Source of the DNA: a bacterium
GTDB lineage: Bacteria > Bacillota_I > Bacilli_A > RF39 > UBA660
Length of the DNA: 64,000 bases
Assembly (NCBI GenBank): GCA_029099845.1
Contig: JAQXOT010000011.1
Coordinates: 41,044 to 105,043, forward strand
Reading direction: 5' to 3'
The notes below the pieces were generated by a model. The model had not been told where the DNA came from. It made no database searches and saw nothing but the letters and a program-made list of their open reading frames with translations. Shown here piece by piece: positions 1 through 31,805 of this stretch. Position numbers and translations under genes: made by a program. Position 1 is the first letter of the stretch. The number at the start of each line of letters is the position of its first letter.

Positions 1-546
1 TTTTAATAATTCACTTTGCTTTTTGGCATCAGTAACATTTAATAAAGCTCTGGCATGACGTTCTGATATTTGTTCTTTTAATAAGGCGTCTTGGACTTCA
101 TCTGGTAATGATAGAAGACGTAATTTGTTAGCTACGGAAGATTGACTTTTACCCATTGTCTTAGCTAGTTCTTCTTGAGTCATTTGATCAATTTCTAAAA
201 TTTTTTGATACGTTCTTGCTTCTTCAATTGGATTTAAATTTTTTCGTTGTAGATTTTCTAGTAAAGCTACTTTTGAACTTTCTTTATCATCTAAATCTCT
301 AATAATCGCAGGGATTCTTGTTAGGCCAGCTAAGGCAGAAGCTTTGTATCTTCTTTCTCCAGCAATAATTTCATATTTACCATTGACATTTCTTACTATA
401 ATTGGTTGAATTACACCATGTTCTTTTATTGATACAGCTAATTCCTTTAAAGCTTTTTCATCAAATACTTCACGTGGTTGAAATCTATTAGGAATTATAT
501 CGTCTAAGTATAAATATACTACTTCATCTTTGGTCTCTTGATTCAT
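1..546 (-). CDS. ParB/Noc-family protein, N-terminal ~182 aa (3' end lies beyond window start)
   Basis: Reverse translation from the ATG at 546 gives MNQETKDEVVYLYLDDIIPNRFQPREVFDE...IIAGERRYKASALAGL. This has the ParB-box GERRY(K/R)A and an HTH region. Its position right after rsmG with no parA between matches noc in Bacillus. Confidence 0.8.
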   Translation of the reverse strand, partial: MNQETKDEVVYLYLDDIIPNRFQPREVFDEKALKELAVSIKEHGVIQPIIVRNVNGKYEIIAGERRYKASALAGLTRIPAIIRDLDDKESSKVALLENLQRKNLNPIEEARTYQKILEIDQMTQEELAKTMGKSQSSVANKLRLLSLPDEVQDALLKEQISERHARALLNVTDAKKQSELLK

Positions 547-6627: not shown

Positions 6628-6654
6628 CTAAATTCACCAATCTTTTCTTTAAAT

Positions 6655-6688
6655 AATAGTAAAAAACCACTGTATTTTTTCAGCGGTT
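6655..6688 (-). terminator. putative terminator downstream of rpmH
   Basis: Imperfect hairpin accactg...cagcggt next to a T-run. Confidence 0.35.
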
Positions 6689-6811
6689 TTATTTGCATAG
6701 ACTTTTACGTCCTTTGCGACGACGACGATTTAAAATATTTGTTTTTTTACGTGCAAAAAAACCTAGTTTTTTAGCTTTTTTACGATTATTTGGTTGATAT
6801 GTTCTTTTCAC
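6689..6811 (-). CDS. rpmH: 50S ribosomal protein L34
   Basis: GTG start preceded by GGAGGTG; MKRTYQPNNRKKAKKLGFFARKKTNILNRRRRKGRKSLCK. The six-frame ORF 6689..6871 is an upstream over-extension. Confidence 0.9.
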   Translation of the reverse strand: MKRTYQPNNRKKAKKLGFFARKKTNILNRRRRKGRKSLCK

Positions 6812-6892
6812 TTGTTCCACCTCCAGACATAAATCTCCATTATTATAATAGGAAGATGCATAGTTTGTCAATTAAATTAGTGTATTTTTTAT

Positions 6893-7034
6893 TTTTTCAC
6901 AAATTCCACAGAATTGTGGAATACTTTTATTCATATGTGCAAACAAAAACTGTGGAAACTGTGGAAAAAGCAAGGTTTTCTTTTAAAATCAAAGGTTTCA
7001 TTTGTGCAAAAAATTGTTGATTTCGTGTGGATAA
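6893..7034. promoter_or_regulatory. oriC upstream DnaA-box cluster (incC-like)
   Basis: At least six 9-mers matching or near TTATCCACA on either strand: TTTTTCACA 6893, AATTCCACA 6902, TGTGGAATA 6915, TGTGGAAAC 6951, TGTGGAAAA 6960, and a perfect TGTGGATAA at 7026..7034. Confidence 0.8.
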
Positions 7035-7119
7035 AATTTTATCAAAAAAAAATGTTTCTTTTTTTCACAATTTAAGGTACACTAATCGTAGTTTATTTAT
7101 CTTGAGGGGAGATGGTAGA

Positions 7120-8493
7120 ATGAATGTTGATGTTTTATGGTCTAATTTTTTAAAACAAATAAAAGAAGAATTAACATCTTTATCATTCGATACTTGGTTT
7201 GCAGATACTCACCTTCATAAGATAGATGATGGCAAGGCATATATTGTTGTGCCAATGCCAATCCATAAAAAGCATTTATTAGATAATTATTCTGATTTGA
7301 TTACAAAAATATTAAATGAAATTACTAACAGTAACTTAGAACTCGTTTTTTTGCTAAAAGAGGAAATTGAGGATGTTGTTCCGAAAAAAGAGATACAAAG
7401 TTCAGATTTATTGTTAGAGGTAGATAATAAAGTTCATTCAAATTTAAATGCTAATTATACTTTTGATAATTTTATAGTAGGGAATAGTAATAAATTTGCA
7501 CAGGCGGCAGCTCTTTCTGTAGCTGAAAATCCTGGGAAAATGTACAATCCACTATTTATATATGGTAATAGTGGGCTAGGTAAAACACATCTAATGCATG
7601 CAATTGGTAATTATATAATTCAAAATTCTGATAAAAAAGTTCTATATGTTACTAGTGATCAATTTATACAGGACTTTATTAGTCTAAAGAAAAAAGATGA
7701 AAGTGAAACAAATTTCAATTATATTGATTTTTTCAAAAACAAATATAGAAATATAGATGTTTTAATTATTGATGATATTCAATTTTTAGGGGGAGCAACA
7801 GGAACACAAAAAGAATTTTTCCATACTTTTAACACATTATATAATGATAGTAAACAAATTATAATTTCCTCTGATCGTTCTCCAGATGATTTGAAACTTT
7901 TAGAGGATAGGCTTAGAACAAGATTTTGTTGGGGGTTAACTGTTAATATTTTTCCACCGGATTTTGCTTTAAGAACTGCCATATTAAAAAAGAAAATTGT
8001 GGCGGGAAATTTTGAAAAAGAAATTCCAGAAGATGTAATTGAATATATTGCTTCTAATATTGGGACCGATGTTAGACAACTCGAGGGCTCAATCACACGT
8101 TTAATTGCTTATTCAGCAATAATGAGTGGGGCAGATATAACCTTAGATTTGGCAATAGAAGCCTTGAAAGATTTCATTAGTAAAGGTATGAGTGAAAAAA
8201 ATGACATTCATAGAATTCAAAAAATTGTATCTGAATATTTTCAAATCTCTGTAGAAGACATTAGAAGTAAAAAGCGAAGTTCAAATATTTCTTTTCCTAG
8301 GCAAATTGCTATGTATCTTTGTCGAGAGATGACCAGTGAGTCTTTTCCTAAAATTGGTACAGAGTTTGGGGGAAAAGATCATTCAACAGTAATGCATTCT
8401 GTTGAAAAAATAGAAAATGAAATTAAAGTGAATAAAGATTTAGCTAATATTATTGAAAAATTAAAAAAGGATATTGGTATTGTGCAAAAGTAG
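7120..8493 (+). CDS. dnaA: chromosomal replication initiator DnaA
   Basis: Walker A GNSGLGKTHL, AAA+ domain, and C-terminal DNA-binding helix. The start is moved to MNVDVLWSNF, which has a GAGGGGAG RBS; the 7027 ORF start runs through the DnaA boxes. Confidence 0.95.
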   Translation: MNVDVLWSNFLKQIKEELTSLSFDTWFADTHLHKIDDGKAYIVVPMPIHKKHLLDNYSDLITKILNEITNSNLELVFLLKEEIEDVVPKKEIQSSDLLLEVDNKVHSNLNANYTFDNFIVGNSNKFAQAAALSVAENPGKMYNPLFIYGNSGLGKTHLMHAIGNYIIQNSDKKVLYVTSDQFIQDFISLKKKDESETNFNYIDFFKNKYRNIDVLIIDDIQFLGGATGTQKEFFHTFNTLYNDSKQIIISSDRSPDDLKLLEDRLRTRFCWGLTVNIFPPDFALRTAILKKKIVAGNFEKEIPEDVIEYIASNIGTDVRQLEGSITRLIAYSAIMSGADITLDLAIEALKDFISKGMSEKNDIHRIQKIVSEYFQISVEDIRSKKRSSNISFPRQIAMYLCREMTSESFPKIGTEFGGKDHSTVMHSVEKIENEIKVNKDLANIIEKLKKDIGIVQK

Positions 8494-8508
8494 GGAAAAG
8501 TTTAATAG

Positions 8509-8579
8509 TTTTCCACAAGAAAAAATTAGCTAAATCTTAAAAATATAAAGGAAAAATTAAGTTTTCAACTTTTTCCACA
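8509..8579. promoter_or_regulatory. oriC downstream DnaA boxes plus AT-rich unwinding region
   Basis: TTTTCCACA at 8509..8517 and 8571..8579 within AT-rich spacer between dnaA and dnaN. Confidence 0.7.
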
Positions 8580-8619
8580 GTATTAATAATAATAGTTAAA
8601 AAGAAAGAAGGAAATAAAT

Positions 8620-9775: not shown

Positions 9776-9920
9776 TTTTTTCCATAAAAAAGCCTAAATA
9801 TCGCTAATAATATTAATAGAAGATATATATTTCTTCTTTTTTTGACATTTTATGACAATAGTATTTGCTATATTTTTTTTGAAAACATTATTTTGTTTTC
9901 TAATTTTAGGGGGAATTTTA

Positions 9921-10367
9921 ATGAAATATGAAATTAGTAAGGGAACTTTAGCAATTGTTCCTAATGAAAAAGAAAATAGTTTAGTTTATGAAGATGAAGA
10001 TCGTTATATTGTTGATCAAACACCTTTTGAAATTATGGAAAGTAGTTGTAGGTATTTTGGTAGCACGTATAATGGTAGAAAAGATGGTGCTAAGGATATT
10101 CTTGGTGCAGAGTATAAGGTGCCAATAATAATTGATGATGCTGATAATTTGATAGTTTTTCCTACAACTTCACCACTTTCAGATGATTGTATTTGGATTT
10201 CATTAAAGAGAGTTAAAAATTTTAAGAAGATTGATGCTTGTAATACAAAAATAGTATTTGATAATAATAAGGAAATTATTGTTCCTTGTTCATTTCGAAC
10301 AATAGAAAATCAGGTTTCTAGAGCATCAAGATTAGATCTTATTATGAGAAACAGAAGAAAACACTAA
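9921..10367 (+). CDS. comK: competence transcription factor ComK
   Basis: MKYEISKGTLAIVP...SCRYFGSTYNGRKDGA...FPTTSPLS...FENQVSRA is collinear with B. subtilis ComK (YEVNGATIAVLP...SCRFFGSSYAGRKAGT...FPTLSS...FENQVYRT). Start moved to the ATG with a GGGGGA RBS. Confidence 0.85.
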   Translation: MKYEISKGTLAIVPNEKENSLVYEDEDRYIVDQTPFEIMESSCRYFGSTYNGRKDGAKDILGAEYKVPIIIDDADNLIVFPTTSPLSDDCIWISLKRVKNFKKIDACNTKIVFDNNKEIIVPCSFRTIENQVSRASRLDLIMRNRRKH

Positions 10368-13556: not shown

Positions 13557-16004
13557 ATGGATAGATTAGAAAAAAATAATATTGTAAAAGAAGTAGAAGA
13601 TTCCTTTTTGGAATATTCTATGAGTGTTATTGTTTCAAGAGCGCTTCCGGATTTACGAGATGGTTTAAAGCCTGTTCATCGTCGTATTTTATATTCAATG
13701 TATGAGTCAGGTTATACGCCTGATAAGCCTCATAAGAAGAGTGCTAGAATAGTTGGAGATGTTATGGGAAAATACCATCCTCATGGGGACTCTAGTATTT
13801 ATGAGGCCATGGTTAGGATGGCACAGGATTTTTCATATCGTTATATGTTAGTTGATGGTCATGGAAATTTTGGTAATATTGAAGGTTATGGTGCTGCAGC
13901 AATGCGATATACTGAATCTAGACTTTCAAAAATTTCTTTGGAATTATTGAGAAATATTAATAAAAATACTGTAGATTTTAATCCAAACTTTGATGAAAGT
14001 GAAAGAGAACCGGCTGTTTTACCTTCTAGATTTCCTAATATTTTAGTAAATGGAACCACTGGTATTGCTGTTGGTATGGCGACAAATATCCCACCACATA
14101 ATTTAGGTGAAGTTATTGATGGTTGTGTTGCGTATATAGATAATCCTGATATTGATTTGGATGGTTTGATGCAATATATTAAAGGTCCTGATTTTCCAAC
14201 GGGGGCTACTATTTTAGGAAACGCTGGAATTAGAAGGGCTTATGAAACAGGGCGTGGAACCATTACAATTAGAAGTAAGGCAACAATAGAAGAGAAAAAT
14301 GGAAAGCAGTATATAGTAATTGATGAAGTACCTTATGGAGTAAATACTTTGGAACTAAAAAATAAGGTTGCTGAACTTGTTCATAATAAGACGATTGAGG
14401 GTATTGCTGATTATCATTCAGATTTAAAGAATGGAATTAAGATTACTATTACTTTGAAAAAAGACGCTAATGCGCAGGTTGTTTTAAATAAATTGTATAA
14501 GCATACGGCATTTCAAACAACGTATGGAATTATTTTCTTGATGTTAGATCAAGGAACTCCAAAAACTTTGGGATTAAAAGATATTATTGTTAAATATATT
14601 GATTTTCAAAAAGAAATAATAGTTCGTCGTACTAAATTTGATTTGGATGTTGCTGAAAAGAGAGTTCATATATTAGAGGGCTTAAAGATTGCTTTAGATA
14701 ATATTGATGCTGTTATTAAATTAATCCGTGCTTCTAAATCTGATGATGAAGCTAGAGCTGGATTAATGAATAATTTTAAGCTTTCTGAGTTGCAAGCTAA
14801 TGCAATATTAGAAATGAAATTACGCCGTTTAACGGGCTTAGAACGTGATAAGATAGAAAATGAATTAAATGACTTATTAAAATTAATTGATGAATTACGA
14901 GGCATTTTAGCTAGTGATAAGAAGGTATTAGAGGTTATAAAAAATGAGTTATTGGAAATAAAAGACAAATATGGCGATGAGAGACGTACTAATATAGATA
15001 TGACAGCAATTGAATATATTGAAGATGAATCATTAATACCAAATGAAGATGTTATAGTAACTTTGACAAATAGTGGTTATATTAAACGCTTAAGATCAGA
15101 TACTTATAAAACTCAAAATCGTGGGGGAGTAGGAATTAAAGGAATGACTACAAATGAAGAAGATTTTGTTGAACATTTAGTATCTATGAAAACTCATGAT
15201 TATATTTTATTCTTCTCTAATAAAGGAAGAGTATATAGAATGAAAGGTTATGAAATTCCCGAATTTTCAAGGCAATCTAAGGGTTTACCTATTATAAATT
15301 TATTGGAATTAGATAAAGATGAGAACATTAGTTCGATTGTGGAAATTTCAGAAGATTATGGTGATATTAAGTATTTAGTATTTGCTACAAAGAATGGAAT
15401 TGTAAAAAGAACTGATATTACTGAATTTGATAATATTCGACGAAGTGGTAAAATTGCTATTGTTTTGAAAGAAAATGATGAGCTAATTTCCGTTAGAAAG
15501 ACTTGTGGAAAAGATGAAATTGCTATTGGTGCAAGTAATGGTAGAATGGTTAGATTTGTTGAAGATGAAATTAGAGTAATGGGAAGAAGTTCTTCTGGTG
15601 TTAAAGGTATTGAACTTGATGGTAGTTATGTCGTTGGTGCGGAAGTTGTTAATCCTGGACAAGAAATTTTAATTGTTACTGATAATGGTTATGGTAAGAA
15701 AACATTAATTGATGAGTATAGATTAACACATAGGGGTAGTAAAGGTGTACGAGCACTAAATCTTACAGATAAAAATGGAAGTATGGCGGCATTTAAGTGC
15801 ATTGACTCTTTAAATTATGATATTATTCTTGTTACTGATAGTGGTATAGTTATGAAGATGCCATTAGAACAAGTTTCTACATTGAGACGTGCTACTCAAG
15901 GTGTAAGGTTAATTAATCTTAAAGATAACCAGAAAGTTGCTACTGTTGCTCTTGTGGAAAAAATAATTGAAAGTGATTCTGGTGTTACAGATGAGGAAAA
16001 TTAA
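13557..16004 (+). CDS. gyrA: DNA gyrase subunit A
   Basis: Active-site region AAMRYTE, QRDR, C-terminal beta-pinwheel repeats; 815 aa. Confidence 0.97.
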
Positions 16005-16026
16005 TTAAAAAAAATATCATTAATTG

Positions 16027-16061
16027 AAAGATAAAATTTAAATTTATCTTTCTTTTTTTTT
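16027..16061 (+). terminator. rho-independent terminator after gyrA
   Basis: aaagataaaATTTAAAtttatcttt hairpin followed by a T9 run. Confidence 0.7.
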
Positions 16062-16160
16062 ATGTTTATATTTTTATTGCATTATTTTTTGACCATATTA
16101 TTAGAAATTTGCTTGTGGAAAAAAGATTTTGGTGTTCTAATAATATTTCAATTTGTAAAA

Positions 16161-16176
16161 TGTTTCACGTGAAACA
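16161..16176. promoter_or_regulatory. parS site 1
   Basis: TGTTTCACGTGAAACA exact palindrome. Confidence 0.85.
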
Positions 16177-16424
16177 CAGGTAAGTATTTTTTATTTAATA
16201 CAAGGAAATTTATTTTAATTAAGTTTTTCACTTTTTATTTAATATTTTATTTTATATTTAATATTTTAAATTTTATTTTAGTATAATCAGTTTGTATTTT
16301 TTATTAATTGCTTGATAGATGATAGCTTTATTAGAAAACTTATTGAATATTTTATTTGTGGAAAAAATAATTGAACATGCAAATATATTATTATGTTTAA
16401 TTGTACTTTATTATTTTGGGAAAT

Positions 16425-16438
16425 ATTTCCTGGGAAAT
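16425..16438. promoter_or_regulatory. Noc-binding-site-like palindrome (ATTTCCTGGGAAAT, 1 mismatch to NBS)
   Basis: NBS consensus is ATTTCCCGGGAAAT; this copy differs at one central base. Confidence 0.45.
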
Positions 16439-16496
16439 AATTTTTATTAAGAAAATATTTTTATGATGTTTTTTTCTAATATAAATATTTAGTTAA

Positions 16497-16512
16497 TGTT
16501 TCACGTGAAACA
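16497..16512. promoter_or_regulatory. parS site 2
   Basis: TGTTTCACGTGAAACA exact palindrome. Confidence 0.85.
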
Positions 16513-16605
16513 TTAAGATTGAATATATTTTTTATGAGCAGCTGTTATATCTATTTTTAATAAAAAGTAATTTTTTTAAAGCATCGGTTTAAATTAAAAA
16601 AACAA

Positions 16606-16621
16606 TGTTTCACGTGAAACA
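16606..16621. promoter_or_regulatory. parS site 3
   Basis: TGTTTCACGTGAAACA exact palindrome. Confidence 0.85.
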
Positions 16622-16721
16622 TTGTAAGAAAAACTAAAATTGTTAAAAAAATAATATCATTATTGGATTATTTCTTTAGTCCAATTTAAAGCAACCTTTA
16701 TATTTAACTATAAAAATAGTA

Positions 16722-16737
16722 TGTTTCACGTGAAACA
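16722..16737. promoter_or_regulatory. parS site 4
   Basis: TGTTTCACGTGAAACA exact palindrome, extended to ATGTTTCACGTGAAACAT. Confidence 0.85.
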
Positions 16738-16835
16738 TAGATTAACCCATAAAAAATAAATATATACAATAAACAATATAAATAAGTATTTTAAGATTGA
16801 TTTTTTTATTATAGTTATTCTTATATTAAAAACAA

Positions 16836-16851
16836 TGTTTCACGTGAAACA
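16836..16851. promoter_or_regulatory. parS site 5
   Basis: TGTTTCACGTGAAACA exact palindrome. Confidence 0.85.
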
Positions 16852-17002
16852 TAAGAAAATACTTGGGAAATAATAGTTTACAAATAATTATTCTTATATT
16901 AAAATATGTTTGTGCAATGAAAGCAATAGAACCAGGTCAGGATTGGAAAATAGCAGCCTTAATATTTCACTTTCATGTGCACTTTTATTTTGAGGTGATA
17001 TT

Positions 17003-17452
17003 TTGAAAAACAAATATATGAATATAGCATTTGATGAAGCTTTAAAAGCATATAATCTTGATGAAATACCTGTTGGAGCTGTTATCGTAAAAAATGATGA
17101 AGTTATTGCTGTAGGACATAATATGAAGGAAAGTAAAAAAAGTGCTATTTATCATGCTGAAATAATAGCTTTACTTGCAGCTTCAGAAAAATTAAATAAT
17201 TGGCGATTGGATGAGTGTGATATGTATGTAACATTAGAACCTTGCCCAATGTGTGCTAGTGCAATTAAACAATCTCGAATTAAAAATGTTTACTGTGGAT
17301 TAAGCAATTCTGATAAAAATAATACGTTAATTCTAGAACAAATATTTTCTGTAGATAAAGTTAATCCTAAGATAAATTTTTATAATGATTTGGATGCAAA
17401 TAATGTACGTAATTTGATGCAAAAATTCTTCTCAGAAAAAAGAAAAAAATGA
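17003..17452 (+). CDS. tadA: tRNA-specific adenosine deaminase
   Basis: CDA zinc motifs HAEIIAL and PCPMCASA; TTG start after a GAGGTGA RBS. Confidence 0.9.
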   Translation: MKNKYMNIAFDEALKAYNLDEIPVGAVIVKNDEVIAVGHNMKESKKSAIYHAEIIALLAASEKLNNWRLDECDMYVTLEPCPMCASAIKQSRIKNVYCGLSNSDKNNTLILEQIFSVDKVNPKINFYNDLDANNVRNLMQKFFSEKRKK

Positions 17453-17486: not shown

Positions 17487-19292
17487 GTGTATCAAGCATT
17501 ATATAGAAAATATAGACCGATTGATTTTGATAGTGTAGTAGGACAAGAATCTTTAGTAAGAACACTAAAAAATTCCATTATAAATAATTCTTTTTCACAT
17601 GCTTATATGTTTTTTGGACCAAGAGGAACTGGAAAGACTACCTTATCAAAAATTTTTGCACGAGCAGTAAATTGTTTGAATCCGATAGATGGAAATGCTT
17701 GTGGAAAATGTAGTTGCTGCCTTAATTCTTATGAAAAAGAATGTGTTGATATTATTGAAATAGATGCAGCTTCTAATAATGGTGTTGATGAAATACGTGA
17801 ATTAAAAAATAAGATTTCTTTGGTCCCAGCTAATTTAAAATTTAAGGTTTACATAATAGATGAAGTTCATATGTTATCTTTGGGTGCTTTTAATGCTTTG
17901 CTAAAAACTTTGGAAGAACCTCCTGAACATGCTATTTTTATTTTGGCTACGACGGATCCTCAAAAAGTGCCTGAAACAATTATTTCTCGTTGCCAGTGCT
18001 TCTCTTTTAAAAGAATATCGAATGGTTGTATTGTTAAACGTTTAAGAGATATTTGCAAAATGGAAAAAATTTCCATTTCTGATGAAGTCCTTAATGAAAT
18101 TGCTTCGGCTTCTGAAGGTGGTATGCGTGATGCATTGGGATTACTTGATAAATTACGCTCTTTTACTAATGGTGAAATAACAGTTGATGATTTTATTGAA
18201 TTAAATGGCCTAATAACAAAAGACAATTTAAAAGAATTAGTTGATTCAATTATGCAAGGTGATAATACCAGAGTTTTACAATTAATTTCTTCATATAATG
18301 AAAATGGTAAGAATTTAATTCAAATTATGTCACAACTTATGAATTATTTAAGAAATATTATAGTTTCATACTATGTGGATAATATTATTTTTGCTTATAA
18401 TGTAGATAATTTAATTAAACTAGTAAACACTGTTAACGAAAAAATGTTCGATATTAAAAAAAGCGGTAATCCTAATATATATATAGAGATGCTGCTATTA
18501 AAATTTATGAATGATTATACTAAAAATACTACTATTGATGATAAAAAAAATATTTCCCGGGAAATAAAAACTTTAGAAAAAGAGAAAACTGTTTCTCTTA
18601 CTGAAAATTTTAAAACAAAACAAAATATTGAATATAATAATAAAATAGAAGATATACAAGTTATTAAATCTATAGATAAAGATAATAATGATGATCAGTC
18701 TGATAATAGTAAAAATAATGATAAAGTCGAAGAACCGGTCAAAAATATTAATACTAGCGCTAGTATGAGCTCTACTGTTGATAATACTAATAATGATAAT
18801 GATATAGTTACTTTGAGACTTGAAAATTTATTTGAAATTATGAAAGCAAGAGTTAATAATACGTTAGCTATGGCTGATAAACAAATTTTAAAAAATGTTG
18901 TTAATTCTATGAACGTTTTTAATGATTATACATTTGATAATGAAATTGGCTATATTGCTTGTTCTTTATTGGATGGAAAGGTTAGAGCGGCTAGTGAAGA
19001 TAGTATTATATTGAGTTATTATTATGATTCAATTGTTAAACAAAATTTATTGGAATTAGATAAAATAACTGATGTTTTTAATAGATTAACTAATTTGAAT
19101 AAAAAAATTGCGATTATTACAGATGATGATTGGGAAAAAGAAAAAAGTAAGTATATTCAGACTATAAAAAATGGTCAACAGTATACAGTAATTGAAGAAC
19201 CTGAAATGAAAGTATTTGAAGGTTTAAAAGAAAATGATATAATATCTAATAGTGCAATGGAACTATTTGGTGATATTGTAGAAATGGAATAG
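17487..19292 (+). CDS. dnaX: DNA polymerase III subunits gamma/tau
   Basis: GTG start; MYQALYRKYRP...VGQ; Walker A GPRGTGKTT; zinc module CGKCSCC; SRC motif. Confidence 0.95.
   Translation: MYQALYRKYRPIDFDSVVGQESLVRTLKNSIINNSFSHAYMFFGPRGTGKTTLSKIFARAVNCLNPIDGNACGKCSCCLNSYEKECVDIIEIDAASNNGVDEIRELKNKISLVPANLKFKVYIIDEVHMLSLGAFNALLKTLEEPPEHAIFILATTDPQKVPETIISRCQCFSFKRISNGCIVKRLRDICKMEKISISDEVLNEIASASEGGMRDALGLLDKLRSFTNGEITVDDFIELNGLITKDNLKELVDSIMQGDNTRVLQLISSYNENGKNLIQIMSQLMNYLRNIIVSYYVDNIIFAYNVDNLIKLVNTVNEKMFDIKKSGNPNIYIEMLLLKFMNDYTKNTTIDDKKNISREIKTLEKEKTVSLTENFKTKQNIEYNNKIEDIQVIKSIDKDNNDDQSDNSKNNDKVEEPVKNINTSASMSSTVDNTNNDNDIVTLRLENLFEIMKARVNNTLAMADKQILKNVVNSMNVFNDYTFDNEIGYIACSLLDGKVRAASEDSIILSYYYDSIVKQNLLELDKITDVFNRLTNLNKKIAIITDDDWEKEKSKYIQTIKNGQQYTVIEEPEMKVFEGLKENDIISNSAMELFGDIVEME
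18552..18565. promoter_or_regulatory. perfect Noc-binding-site palindrome ATTTCCCGGGAAAT inside dnaX
   Basis: Exact 14-bp match to the B. subtilis NBS consensus. Confidence 0.5.
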
Positions 19293-20200: not shown

Positions 20201-20242
20201 TATCTAAAAAAAATCATACTCTTGATTAGGAGATGATTTTAA

Positions 20243-20422
20243 ATGTTGATATCCTTAATTAAAAAAATAATATTTGGAGCTTTTTTGTTGTATGGTTATA
20301 ATTTAATTGCAGTAAATTTTAATATGGTAATACCTATTAATGCATTTACTTTGGCTTTGATTACTTTTTTAGGCTCTCCGGCTTTAATTGCTTTGGTTTT
20401 ATTTAAGATTATTGTATTGTGA
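20243..20422 (+). CDS. bofA: pro-sigma-K processing inhibitor BofA (59 aa; below the 60-aa ORF-track cutoff)
   Basis: MLISLIKKIIFGAFLL...VNFNMVIPINAFTLALITFLGSPALIALVLF matches the BofA two-TM pattern (VNF...IPLNA.T...G.LG.PG.ALL). Same recR-(yaaL)-bofA position as in B. subtilis. Confidence 0.6.
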   Translation: MLISLIKKIIFGAFLLYGYNLIAVNFNMVIPINAFTLALITFLGSPALIALVLFKIIVL

Positions 20423-20432
20423 GGTTTTTGAA

Positions 20433-28924: not shown

Positions 28925-29165
28925 TTTGTCCATATCTCAAATGTTGTGATGAAGAATTCTAAAAAATTGAGCTATGAAAGAGAACTCTGTTGGTGGAAAT
29001 GAGGATAGTTTTTTTTAGAGTATGGCTTTTGAACTACTATATCGATATGTAGATATGGTCGTAGATAGGCGTTAACTATTTAAGTGTGTGATAATGAATT
29101 ATTATAAAGTAAGGTGGTACCGCGGAGAAATTCGTCCTTATGTTTATAGTAATTTTTTTATTGGA
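28925..29165 (+). promoter_or_regulatory. T-box riboswitch leader controlling metG
   Basis: Canonical T-box AAGGTGGTACCGCGG at 29111..29125, a downstream T-run terminator (29151..29160), and AUG codons in the upstream specifier region. Confidence 0.75.
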
Positions 29166-29187
29166 TTATAGTTTAGGAGGAATAATT

Positions 29188-30735
29188 ATGAAGAAAAAGT
29201 TTTATATTACAACAGCAATTGCTTATACATCTGGTAAACCACATATTGGTAATACTTATGAGGCTGTGTTAGCTGATGCTATTGCTAGATATAAAAGACA
29301 AAGAGGATTTGATGTTTATTTACAAACCGGTACTGATGAACATGGAGTTAAAATTGAGGAAAAGGCTTTGCAAAAAGGTGTTACACCACAGGAATTTGTT
29401 GATGATGTAGCTGCTGAAATTAAAAGAATTTGGGATTTAATGGATGTTAGTTATGATAAGTTTGTTAGAACTACAGATAAGCATCATGAAGAAGTAGTAC
29501 AACATATTTTTAAGAAAATGTATGAAAATGGTGATATTTATAAAGGAGAATATAAAGGCCTTTATTGTACGCCTTGTGAGTCATTTTGGACAGAATCACA
29601 ATTAGTGGATGGTAAATGTCCTGATTGTGGACGAGATGTTGAAATTTCTAGTGAAGAGGCTTACTTTTTTAAATTATCAAAATATCAAGACCGTTTGGAG
29701 AAATATTTTGATGAACATCCAAATTTTATTTTGCCAGTATCTAGAAAAAATGAGATGATAAATAACTTTATTAAACCAGGGCTTCAAGATTTATGTGTAT
29801 CACGGACTTCCATTAAATGGGGAATTCCTGTTTCTTTTGATGATAAACATGTTGTTTATGTTTGGCTTGATGCTTTGACTAATTATATTACTAATATCGG
29901 ATATGATGTAGATAATGAGACTGATGAATTTAAAAGGTTATGGCCAGCCGATTTACAAATTATTGGTAAAGATATTGTTCGTTTTCATTCTATCTATTGG
30001 CCTTGCTTTTTATGGTCTTTAGGCTTAGAGTTACCTAAACAATTATTTGGTCATCCTTGGCTTTTAACTAATAATGATAAAATTGGTAAATCAAGAGGAA
30101 ATGCTATTTATGCTGATGATTTAGTTGAAAAGTTTGGTTTAGATGCAGTAAGATTTTATTTGTTACACGAAATGCCTTTTGCAAATGATGGTAATATTAC
30201 ATATGATTTATTGATTGAGAGAATTAATGGTGAACTTGCTAATGTGTTAGGTAATTTGGTTCAAAGGACAATTTCAATGGGAAATAAGTATTTTGATGGA
30301 AAAGTTACTAATAAAAAAGTTAATTTGGATGTTGATAATAATTTTATAGAACTTATTAATGGTTTAAATAAAAAATTAGAAGATAAGATGGATAATTACT
30401 TAGTAAGTGATGCACTTACTGAAATATTCAGTGTTTTGAGAGCTAGTAATAAGTATATTGATGATACTACACCATGGATACTTGCAAAAGATGAATCATC
30501 TAGGGATAGATTAGAAACAGTTCTTTATAATTTATTAGAAGCTATTAGAGTATGTGCTGTTTTATTAGTTCCATTTATGAGAAATACTAGTGAAAAAATA
30601 TTGCACCAATTAAATAATAGTGTTGATAGTTTCTATTATGTTTCTGATAATAATTATGAGTTAGGGCAACCAGAAGTTTTATTCCAACGATTAGATAAAG
30701 AACAACTTTTAAAAGAGTTAAATGATGTAAAATAG
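29188..30735 (+). CDS. metG: methionyl-tRNA synthetase (short form)
   Basis: HIGN (PHIGNTYE), zinc knuckles CTPCE/CPDCG, KMSKS-type KIGKSRGN. Start moved to MKKKFYITTA, which has a GGAGG RBS. Confidence 0.95.
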   Translation: MKKKFYITTAIAYTSGKPHIGNTYEAVLADAIARYKRQRGFDVYLQTGTDEHGVKIEEKALQKGVTPQEFVDDVAAEIKRIWDLMDVSYDKFVRTTDKHHEEVVQHIFKKMYENGDIYKGEYKGLYCTPCESFWTESQLVDGKCPDCGRDVEISSEEAYFFKLSKYQDRLEKYFDEHPNFILPVSRKNEMINNFIKPGLQDLCVSRTSIKWGIPVSFDDKHVVYVWLDALTNYITNIGYDVDNETDEFKRLWPADLQIIGKDIVRFHSIYWPCFLWSLGLELPKQLFGHPWLLTNNDKIGKSRGNAIYADDLVEKFGLDAVRFYLLHEMPFANDGNITYDLLIERINGELANVLGNLVQRTISMGNKYFDGKVTNKKVNLDVDNNFIELINGLNKKLEDKMDNYLVSDALTEIFSVLRASNKYIDDTTPWILAKDESSRDRLETVLYNLLEAIRVCAVLLVPFMRNTSEKILHQLNNSVDSFYYVSDNNYELGQPEVLFQRLDKEQLLKELNDVK

Positions 30736-31052: not shown

Positions 31053-31805
31053 ATGTTTGTAGATACACATTGTCATTTGTCTTCAGAGGATTATGATGAT
31101 ATAGATTTAGTAATAAAGGAAAATTTAGATAATGGTGTTTCTAAAATGATTATTTCTGCTTGTACATTTGAGACTTTGGATGAGGCTCTTTCTATTAGTA
31201 AGAAAAATGATTGTGTTTATGTTACTTTAGGCTTTCATCCATCGGAAGCTTTGGTGATTGATGATGCAAAATTAAAGCTATTGGCGGAAAAATTACAGGA
31301 TGATAAAGTTGTTGGTGTTGGAGAGATTGGACTAGATTATCATTATGGCAAGGATATGAGAGATTTACAAATTGAACTATTTGAAAGGCAACTTTCTTTG
31401 GCTCAAGAATTAAATTTACCGGTCGTTATTCATAGTAGAGATGCTACACTTGATACAATTAATACTTTGAAAAAATATAAGGTTAAGGGAATAATACATT
31501 GTTTTAGTGGCAGTTTAGAAATAGCTAAGGAGTATGTTTCATTAGGGTATAAACTAGGTATTGGTGGGGTTGTTACTTTTAGTAATTCTAAGTTGAGTGA
31601 TGTTGTTGCTGAAATTGGTCTTGAAAATATTGTTTTAGAGACAGATAGTCCTTACTTAACTCCAGTTCCATTTAGAGGAAAAAAGAATAGTTCAAAGTAT
31701 ATATATTTAGTAGCAAAAAAGATAAGTGAAATTTATTCGGTTTCTTTGGATGAAGTAGCTAAAATCACTACCGATAATTCTTTGTCATTGTTTGACTTGA
31801 AATAA
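31053..31805 (+). CDS. tatD: TatD-family metal-dependent DNase
   Basis: MFVDTHCHL start, HSRDA, IHCFSG and ETDSPYL motifs. Confidence 0.9.
   Translation: MFVDTHCHLSSEDYDDIDLVIKENLDNGVSKMIISACTFETLDEALSISKKNDCVYVTLGFHPSEALVIDDAKLKLLAEKLQDDKVVGVGEIGLDYHYGKDMRDLQIELFERQLSLAQELNLPVVIHSRDATLDTINTLKKYKVKGIIHCFSGSLEIAKEYVSLGYKLGIGGVVTFSNSKLSDVVAEIGLENIVLETDSPYLTPVPFRGKKNSSKYIYLVAKKISEIYSVSLDEVAKITTDNSLSLFDLK

Follow-up and report, generated by a model that had tools for sequence, protein, structure and literature searches.

Does a short non-coding interval close to the replication origin of an uncultured gut bacterium act as the centromere of its chromosome? The question is raised by a stretch of 64,000 nucleotides (the window) from assembly GCA_029099845.1 (contig JAQXOT010000011.1, positions 41,044 to 105,043), in which an earlier note had picked out five parS sites, the targets of the partition protein ParB, between gyrA and tadA, and had read them as a dedicated centromere. 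Our analysis supports that reading on three grounds: a cognate soj–parB pair is encoded in the same origin region, the sites are exclusive to a single spacer in the DNA scanned, and their position is kept across the clade. The five sites very probably constitute a compact, lineage-conserved chromosomal centromere of this small-genome member of the uncultured gut Bacilli.

The sequence TGTTTCACGTGAAACA, which is identical to the parS consensus used in experiments (PMC7383237), occurs exactly five times in the window (Table 1), compared with no occurrence in 100 dinucleotide-preserving shuffles of it. The five sites span 691 bp, and their start-to-start distances of 336, 109, 116 and 114 bp agree with the 100 to 340 bp reported earlier; these spacings are not consistently phased on the helix. 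Four of the five sites take the form of the 18-bp palindrome ATGTTTCACGTGAAACAT. The DNA scanned for this genome amounts to about 74 kb around oriC, consisting of the 64-kb window and 10 kb before its start, and it contains no further parS at two or fewer mismatches. A scan of the 64 kb allowing three mismatches adds one site only, at 31789 (3 mismatches). The region before the window start was reached through L001, a 94-kb ENA contig with an identical RsmG, of which a 20.6-kb locus was used that overlaps the window and extends 10 kb past its start. Within these 20.6 kb, which cover noc, soj and parB, no parS (three or fewer mismatches) is present at all, and hence none in or near parB. In the origin-region DNA scanned, the consensus sites are exclusive to one spacer near oriC.

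The same five-site array is found in five other assemblies of this species, obtained from different samples, at 99.9–100% identity, and we therefore take it to be real sequence and not assembly noise. In L167 (ENA ERZ28436041), which is also of this species, exactly 109 bp from parS2 to parS3 are gone, leaving four sites; this loss of one unit may be a strain-level difference in copy number, with a collapse during assembly as the alternative. The description of the array as tandem does not hold for this species: Tandem Repeats Finder detects no repeat containing parS, a MAFFT alignment of the five units shows unrelated spacers, and the repeated part is limited to the site and a few flanking bases. 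Five perfect sites amid unrelated spacers imply purifying selection on the sites alone and indicate that such selection holds each parS at the consensus.

The comparison drew on 73 homologous loci that reach from gyrA to dnaX in related genomes or metagenome contigs and together amount to 1.12 Mb; parS were counted at no more than one mismatch. All 268 sites lie inside the gyrA–dnaX zone, which makes up 9% of the bases, and none lies in the other 91%. The number of parS per locus ranges from 0 to 9, with a median of 3; at least two are present in 66 of the 73 loci, and at least five in 23. Conservation of the array in related genomes, which the earlier note had proposed as a check, is thus borne out as a fixed gyrA–dnaX zone with a variable number of copies. 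A further set comprised 80 GyrA loci (80 species), covering 6 kb on either side of gyrA and stopping short of noc, which was scanned at two or fewer mismatches. In this set every parS-like site lies 18–2137 bp past the gyrA stop codon, with none in the 6 kb upstream of gyrA or further downstream. A second, independent set of DnaA-centred loci (10 kb on either side) from metagenomes of the Joint Genome Institute (JGI) shows the same placement. The order gyrA, array, ffs, tadA, dnaX, in which ffs encodes the signal recognition particle (SRP) RNA, is kept across relatives (more than 70 species), and parS is present in 51 of 52 complete gyrA–ffs spacers. A few relatives also have parS, together with Noc-binding sites (NBS), between tadA and dnaX.

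The relatives identified by GyrA are uncultured Bacilli of the gut and rumen, carrying names such as ‘Mycoplasma sp. CAG:877’, ‘Clostridium sp. CAG:710’, Candidatus Onthousia, Faecimonas, Fimihabitans and Coprovivens. Onthousia is placed by NCBI in Bacilli incertae sedis, and the taxon labels of the relatives' metagenome-assembled genomes (MAGs) are inconsistent; we take these organisms to match the RFN20/RF39-type orders of GTDB.

Of 258 sites in the relatives with two or fewer mismatches, 150 are perfect, and the variants differ mostly at positions 5/12 and 1/16. In B. subtilis, the parS consensus TGTTNCACGTGAAACA has its degenerate N at position 5. The 150 perfect sites are flanked by A at −1 in 98% of cases and by T at +16 in 99%, which gives a palindrome of 18 bp. 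Many relatives have true tandem units, with lengths of 26, 28, 34, 56, 62, 64, 68, 70, 75, 84, 93, 105, 108, 118 and 125 bp and larger. Overall, units measure 26–393 bp, those of one array are 72–100% identical (mostly 85–100%), and they differ between species. Contigs end less than 800 bp after gyrA in 28 of the 80 MAGs, several of them inside parS arrays (among the early-ending contigs are L010, L014, L017, L021, L027, L030, L037–L039, L041, L046, L047, L052, L054, L056, L063, L065, L067–L069, L071, L075, L078 and L084). Five of these, L065, L067, L068, L069 and L071, end in perfect 26–28-bp tandem units carrying a parS variant with two mismatches. The parS arrays are probably the cause of the breaks in these 28 MAGs; such arrays probably disrupt short-read assembly. 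Judged from the turnover of units and from the 109-bp deletion in L167, the locus gains, loses and homogenises units by recombination or slippage between the repeated sites. A fixed position combined with changing copy number and changing spacers is the pattern expected of a selected cis-acting site.

Tight arrays of parS are also found on mobile DNA, and the spacer might be thought to hold a centromere left behind by an integrated plasmid or phage-plasmid. IMG/VR contigs L175–L198, with GC contents from 30% to 71%, carry arrays of two to eight perfect parS of the chromosomal consensus at periods of ~36–150 bp, for example in L195 (6137–6460, eight copies at a period of ~38 bp), L183 (8226–8406) and L175 (10535–11462). 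Tight arrays of three to eight perfect copies, such as that of L195, lie on viral or plasmid-like contigs, and the F plasmid sopC consists of twelve 43-bp tandem repeats (PMC6238139). The window array is, however, flanked by the core genes gyrA, ffs, tadA and dnaX, this synteny holds in more than 70 species, and there are no mobile-element genes nearby. Nor does the array behave as a generic dispersed repeat, an alternative that the earlier note had itself named: no other copy with two or fewer mismatches is found in the 64 kb plus 10 kb scanned, and the 268 sites of the 73 loci are all in the zone. An assembly artefact is contradicted by the identical sequence in five independent assemblies. 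We consider it extremely unlikely that a mobile remnant, a dispersed repeat or an artefact accounts for the array.

The proteins expected to act on the array are encoded just beyond the window start, where L001 carries rsmG, a noc-like gene (446 residues), soj (266 residues) and parB (301 residues). A ParB of the parAB type, whose absence would have spoken against the earlier note, is thus present together with soj and beside the noc-like gene. It contains the sequence GERRVKAS with the GERR motif for binding cytidine triphosphate (CTP), the N-terminal ParA-interaction peptide KRRALGRGLEELF, and R173 and G201 (GKSR...SMGHAR), the residues of parS-type specificity; the GERR motif, these two residues and a Soj partner recur in the relatives. 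The residues that set parS versus NBS specificity have been defined previously (PMC7383237). In the DnaA-centred set, parB and the noc-like gene are found upstream where the contig reaches; in more distant loci neither is found within 10 kb.

On the ParABS model (PMC7333895, PMC7053999, PMC8367383), each 18-bp palindrome would nucleate ParB dimers, which, with CTP bound, would close to form clamps and then slide along the adjacent DNA. With five such entry points in 691 bp, the rate of loading would be multiplied and one dense partition complex would form ~8–10 kb to the right of oriC. Soj/ParA would act on this complex via the N-terminal peptide of ParB, and SMC would probably be loaded from it. 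By analogy with the systems on which the model is based, ParB binding and spreading, segregation and SMC loading would all be expected at the array. The array interrupts no coding sequence, because it occupies an AT-rich spacer bounded by gyrA on one side and by the ffs promoter on the other.

The spacer has a GC content of 17.2%, compared with 28.1% for the window. The interval between gyrA and tadA had been called AT-rich and gene-free: the first description stands, and so does the second as far as protein-coding genes are concerned, but the interval includes the SRP RNA gene ffs. A hidden gene or RNA within the spacer was considered and rejected, since the longest open reading frame (ORF) has 47 residues and the only Rfam match (E ≤ 1) is the SRP RNA. 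A promoter scan of the spacer gave nothing above shuffled sequence, and the lone ‘terminator’ match is parS3 itself. The promoter-like sequence of ffs is kept in the relatives, with a −35 of TTTACA or TTTACT and an extended −10 resembling TATATTAAAAT.

The closeness of parS to this promoter suggests another explanation of the array, namely that it is mainly an operator cluster, at which ParB or another protein recognising the CACGTG core regulates transcription of ffs–tadA–dnaX or termination of gyrA. In 37 of 70 loci a parS precedes the start of the SRP RNA by 45–70 bp and adjoins the conserved −35 TTTACA on its upstream side, and in about half of the species the parS ends ~8–25 bp upstream of this hexamer; in the window parS5 is 25 bp from it. 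There is also a precedent, in that genes next to the intergenic sites parS3 and parS4 of P. aeruginosa are repressed by ParB bound there (PMC7022226). The array may have started from the promoter-proximal parS as its ancestral anchor, and this site may also influence ffs transcription. For regulation one site would suffice, yet the relatives have 0–9 copies, most of them hundreds of base pairs from any promoter. In addition, the array sites are the only origin-region parS in genomes with a full soj–parB pair, and some relatives have their sites after tadA instead. We therefore regard an operator as the main function of the array as very improbable.

The near-perfect Noc site mentioned in the earlier note is present as TATTTCCTGGGAAATA, with one mismatch, at the centre, from the consensus Noc-binding site TATTTCCCGGGAAATA (PMC7383237); in the relatives the NBS belongs to the array itself, in alternation with parS, and is not a side feature. 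The TATTTCCTGGGAAATA variant is the repeated form of the NBS in the array of L024, and is kept in six other assemblies of the species studied here. The window also contains a perfect NBS within dnaX, and about 20 relatives have an NBS at a roughly corresponding position, ~2.2–3.7 kb after gyrA. In most relatives the tandem units hold TATTTCCCGGGAAATA as a second perfect palindrome besides parS. At one or fewer mismatches, NBS occur in the gyrA–dnaX zone of 63 of the 73 loci, with 175 sites inside the zone compared with 32 outside. The order of the sites is strictly alternating in L058 (NPNPNPNPNPNPNPNPNP, where P is parS and N is NBS) and L049 (PNPNPNPNPNPN), and also in L042, L043, L048 and L025; a subgroup (L070, L072–L074, L080, L083 and L085) has parS only. 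Perfect NBS alternating with parS inside tandem units were seen in L017 and L028 as well.

Of 338 pairs of neighbouring sites, 246 are of different kinds, whereas 2000 shuffles gave 185 on average and at most 211. The observed figure is inflated because units are duplicated as blocks, so that the 246 are not independent events. The alternation recurs across arrays with different unit lengths and spacers, and in the relatives parS and NBS are often 25–40 bp apart, start to start. No composite of parS and NBS was found on the viral and plasmid contigs of IMG/VR, and the arrays of mobile elements there contain no NBS. We found no report in the literature of NBS arrays or of NBS–parS alternation, and none on parS or ParB in RF39.

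These NBS are presumably loaded by the NBS-type ParB paralogue that the noc-like gene encodes beside soj–parB, a link drawn from specificity residues worked out in other species. At the NBS positions Q173, K179, K184 and R201 (ParB numbering), this protein carries Q, K, S and R (GKSQSSVANKLRLLS...SERHAR), and one lysine at 179 or 184 is enough for NBS specificity (PMC7383237). In the relatives these positions read QK[SAGTQN]R. Its best matches in the PDB are Noc structures (7NFU, E = 1e-63). On the NCBIfam Noc model TIGR04285 it scores 295.7 bits, under the cut-off of 315, and ParB scores 241.7 on the same model. The function of Noc needs a conserved N-terminal amphipathic helix (PMC4331003). 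This membrane helix is absent from the paralogue, in which 16 residues of acidic character precede DDIIPNRFQPR and the alignment begins at Noc residue 23–26; in each of the 20 relatives examined, the reading frame extends too little upstream to accommodate it. Before the C-terminal dimerisation domain there is a low-complexity linker of ~200 residues. Across the clade this linker varies from 130 to 320 residues, and the proteins of 20 relatives have total lengths of ~330–520 residues. Judged by these features, the paralogue is not a classical Noc.

A wider proposal, which we put forward only tentatively, is that the centromere of this clade is a composite loading array for two clamps of the ParB family, with ParB on parS and the helix-less, long-linker Noc-type paralogue on NBS. 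Instead of working as a dispersed nucleoid-occlusion factor, the paralogue would then share the partition complex with ParB as its second resident. Its role might be to confine or shape the spreading of ParB, to connect the centromere with division by way of the linker, or to restrain initiation at oriC 8–10 kb away, as Noc does in S. aureus. The window would represent a decayed state of such a composite, its spacer retaining five parS and a single NBS, and dnaX a further NBS.

The proximity of the array to oriC bears on a further alternative. The sign change (minimum) of the GC skew is at ~6–7 kb, where gene orientation also flips, and DnaA boxes are present at 6900–7034 and 8509–8579, in the forms TGTGGATAA, TGTGGAAAA, TGTGGAAAC and TGTGGAATA. 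The DnaA-box clusters and the skew switch place the array ~7.6–9.9 kb from oriC, on the right replichore, in agreement with the ~9 kb estimated earlier. Two DnaA-box-like 9-mers had also been reported in the spacer; both exist, but at the positions given in Table 1 and, as TTTTCCACA, on the minus strand. The second is part of a 20-bp exact direct repeat, TTGTGGAAAAAATAATTGAA, found at 15952–15971 in the 3′ end of gyrA and at 16356–16375 in the spacer, each copy containing TGTGGAAAA, which points to a small duplication that carried the end of gyrA into the spacer.

It could be argued from such boxes that the region serves mainly to control replication, as a cluster of DnaA boxes at which Soj–ParB and the Noc-type protein modulate DnaA or initiation, with parS as an accessory. 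The sequence TGTGGA[AT]AA follows gyrA within 300 bp, mostly at 70–190 bp, in 26 of 66 loci including the window (16114), and the recurring element after the gyrA stop reads TTAC-TTGTGGA[AT]AAAATATTTTT. The oriC of this organism uses the same 9-mer variant, at 6960, 8509 and 8571, and of the 13 copies of TTTTCCACA in the window, 10 are between 6.9 and 17.7 kb. The perfect box TTATCCACA is 8-fold denser in the gyrA–ffs spacers of the relatives than in the rest of their loci, and in L007, the closest relative, it abuts parS in every 309-bp unit. Furthermore, S. aureus Noc restricts initiation and spreads 8–10 kb from its sites (PMC5540599). Boxes number just one or two in most loci, however, and are absent from many, compared with the parS found in nearly every complete spacer, and the boxes are candidate DnaA sites. 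That replication control is the main function of the region therefore seems to us a very unlikely explanation.

Several points weigh against a centromere at this locus. We infer the binding of ParB to the array from sequence, in an organism that is uncultured. Our scans cover origin-region DNA, and further parS are possible more than ~50 kb from oriC. The parAB genes are not adjacent to the array: oriC lies between the two, and the distance is ~17–19 kb. With regard to SMC loading, neither smc nor scpAB was seen in the available origin-region DNA. Finally, about half of the relatives have a parS immediately before the ffs promoter, and this site may have a regulatory side function.

The features of the locus are collected in Table 1. 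By Pfam, the genes of the origin region on the minus strand are rsmG, mnmG, mnmE, jag, yidC and rnpA, and those on the plus strand are dnaA (7027–8493), dnaN, a ComK-family gene, recF, gyrB and gyrA; to the right of the spacer follow, in order, ffs, tadA, dnaX, ybaB and recR. The ComK-family gene (9852–10367, plus strand; PF06338, E = 6e-46) is between dnaN and recF, and occupies the same place in L001. After recR there is a gene of the sporulation-associated BofA family, encoding 59 residues (window ~20240–20425, plus strand; L167 6244–6423). A T-box leader at 28937–29142 (plus strand; RF00230, 95.7 bits) is directly upstream of the gene for methionyl-tRNA synthetase (29140–30735). Two adjacent ORFs of more than 500 residues, at 43863–45434 and 45409–46959 (plus strand), the first of which contains the Resolvase, Recombinase and Zn_ribbon_recom domains of a large serine recombinase, may mark an integrated mobile element.

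Table 1. Positions in the window of the parS array, the associated sites and the genes that border them.
Feature	Position	Strand	Remarks
noc-like gene (NBS-type ParB paralogue), 5′ part	1..546	−	window starts inside the gene; L001 10846–12186
oriC region	6628..8619		rpmH–dnaA spacer, dnaA and dnaA–dnaN spacer; DnaA boxes and GC-skew switch
gyrA	13557..16004	+	left border of the spacer
Spacer (probable centromere)	16005..16900		non-coding, AT-rich, carries the array
DnaA-box-like TTTTCCACA	16114..16122	−	TGTGGAAAA on the plus strand; 110 bp past the gyrA stop
parS1	16161..16176		perfect 16-bp palindrome TGTTTCACGTGAAACA; 157 bp past the gyrA stop
Second DnaA-box-like TTTTCCACA	16357..16365	−	in 20-bp exact repeat of the gyrA 3′ end
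NBS-like palindrome TATTTCCTGGGAAATA	16424..16439		one (central) mismatch from NBS consensus TATTTCCCGGGAAATA
parS2	16497..16512		perfect; within 18-bp palindrome ATGTTTCACGTGAAACAT
parS3	16606..16621		perfect; 109-bp parS2–parS3 unit missing in L167
parS4	16722..16737		perfect
parS5	16836..16851		perfect; promoter-proximal ‘anchor’; 25 bp upstream of the ffs −35 hexamer
ffs promoter-like	−35 TTTACA 16877–16882; −10 TAAAAT 16900–16905
SRP RNA gene (ffs)	16901..16996	+	Rfam RF00169, 58.7 bits; 50 bp after the last parS
tadA	17003..17452	+	followed by dnaX, 17487–19292
Perfect NBS TATTTCCCGGGAAATA	18551..18566		inside dnaX (coding sequence), 1.7 kb past the array

The window array resembles parS1–7 of C. 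crescentus, parS1–4 of P. aeruginosa and parS1–3 of V. cholerae chromosome 1, where several 16-bp parS within a few kb of oriC nucleate one ParB complex. In Caulobacter crescentus, parS1–7 are ~8 kb from ori, the five strongest are within 5 kb of one another, and the sites are inside essential or high-fitness-cost genes (PMC5815017). The window array is, by contrast, ~7 times more compact, with five sites in 0.69 kb, and wholly intergenic. It also differs from such chromosomal clusters in not being next to parAB, and the arrays of the relatives differ from them in being tandem and interleaved with NBS. The Spo0J/parS system of B. subtilis shares with it the 16-bp consensus, the order rsmG–noc–soj–spo0J and the parS and NBS residues in the two paralogues. 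One parS of B. subtilis is inside spo0J, whereas here there is no parS in or near parB and all detectable sites are in one spacer. The four strongest parS of B. subtilis are 5, 13 and 39 kb apart (PMC5815017).

Among plasmids, the closest comparison is with sopC of F, whose twelve 43-bp repeats carry 16-bp inverted repeats (PMC6238139). In both cases palindromes for a ParB-family protein are closely packed in non-coding DNA, and the 26–125-bp tandem units of the relatives are of the same design. Unlike sopC, however, the window array is chromosomal, flanked by core genes, far from parAB, and made up of sites separated by unrelated spacers and not of head-to-tail repeats. With regard to Noc, the palindrome TATTTCCCGGGAAATA is identical to the NBS of B. 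subtilis and S. aureus, and the NBS positions of the paralogue are occupied by Q, K and R. B. subtilis has about 70 NBS. Both there and in S. aureus, which has 41, the sites are scattered one by one over the origin-proximal chromosome (PMC5540599). In the clade described here the NBS are instead concentrated in the centromere spacer, where they alternate with parS, and the paralogue lacks the membrane helix and has a long linker.

Clusters of parS near chromosomal origins, and tight repeated centromeres on plasmids, are thus already known. What is new is a chromosomal, fully intergenic and very compact array that is fixed at gyrA–ffs across an uncultured clade, together with direct evidence of its expansion and contraction and with an alternation of parS and NBS that goes along with an atypical Noc-type paralogue. 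The part seen in the window, with its five parS and one NBS, belongs to the plainer end of the clade's spectrum.

Questions raised for ParABS systems include why the number of parS varies although one is sufficient, why the sites cluster, and how a centromere expands (PMC7333895, PMC5815017). This clade provides a natural series at a single locus, with 0–9 copies, units of 26–393 bp and a one-unit deletion at the level of strains, in which arrays appear to expand and contract by recombination between sites while selection keeps the consensus. The alternation of parS and NBS, which is undescribed in model organisms, would physically link ParB and the Noc-type paralogue at the centromere.

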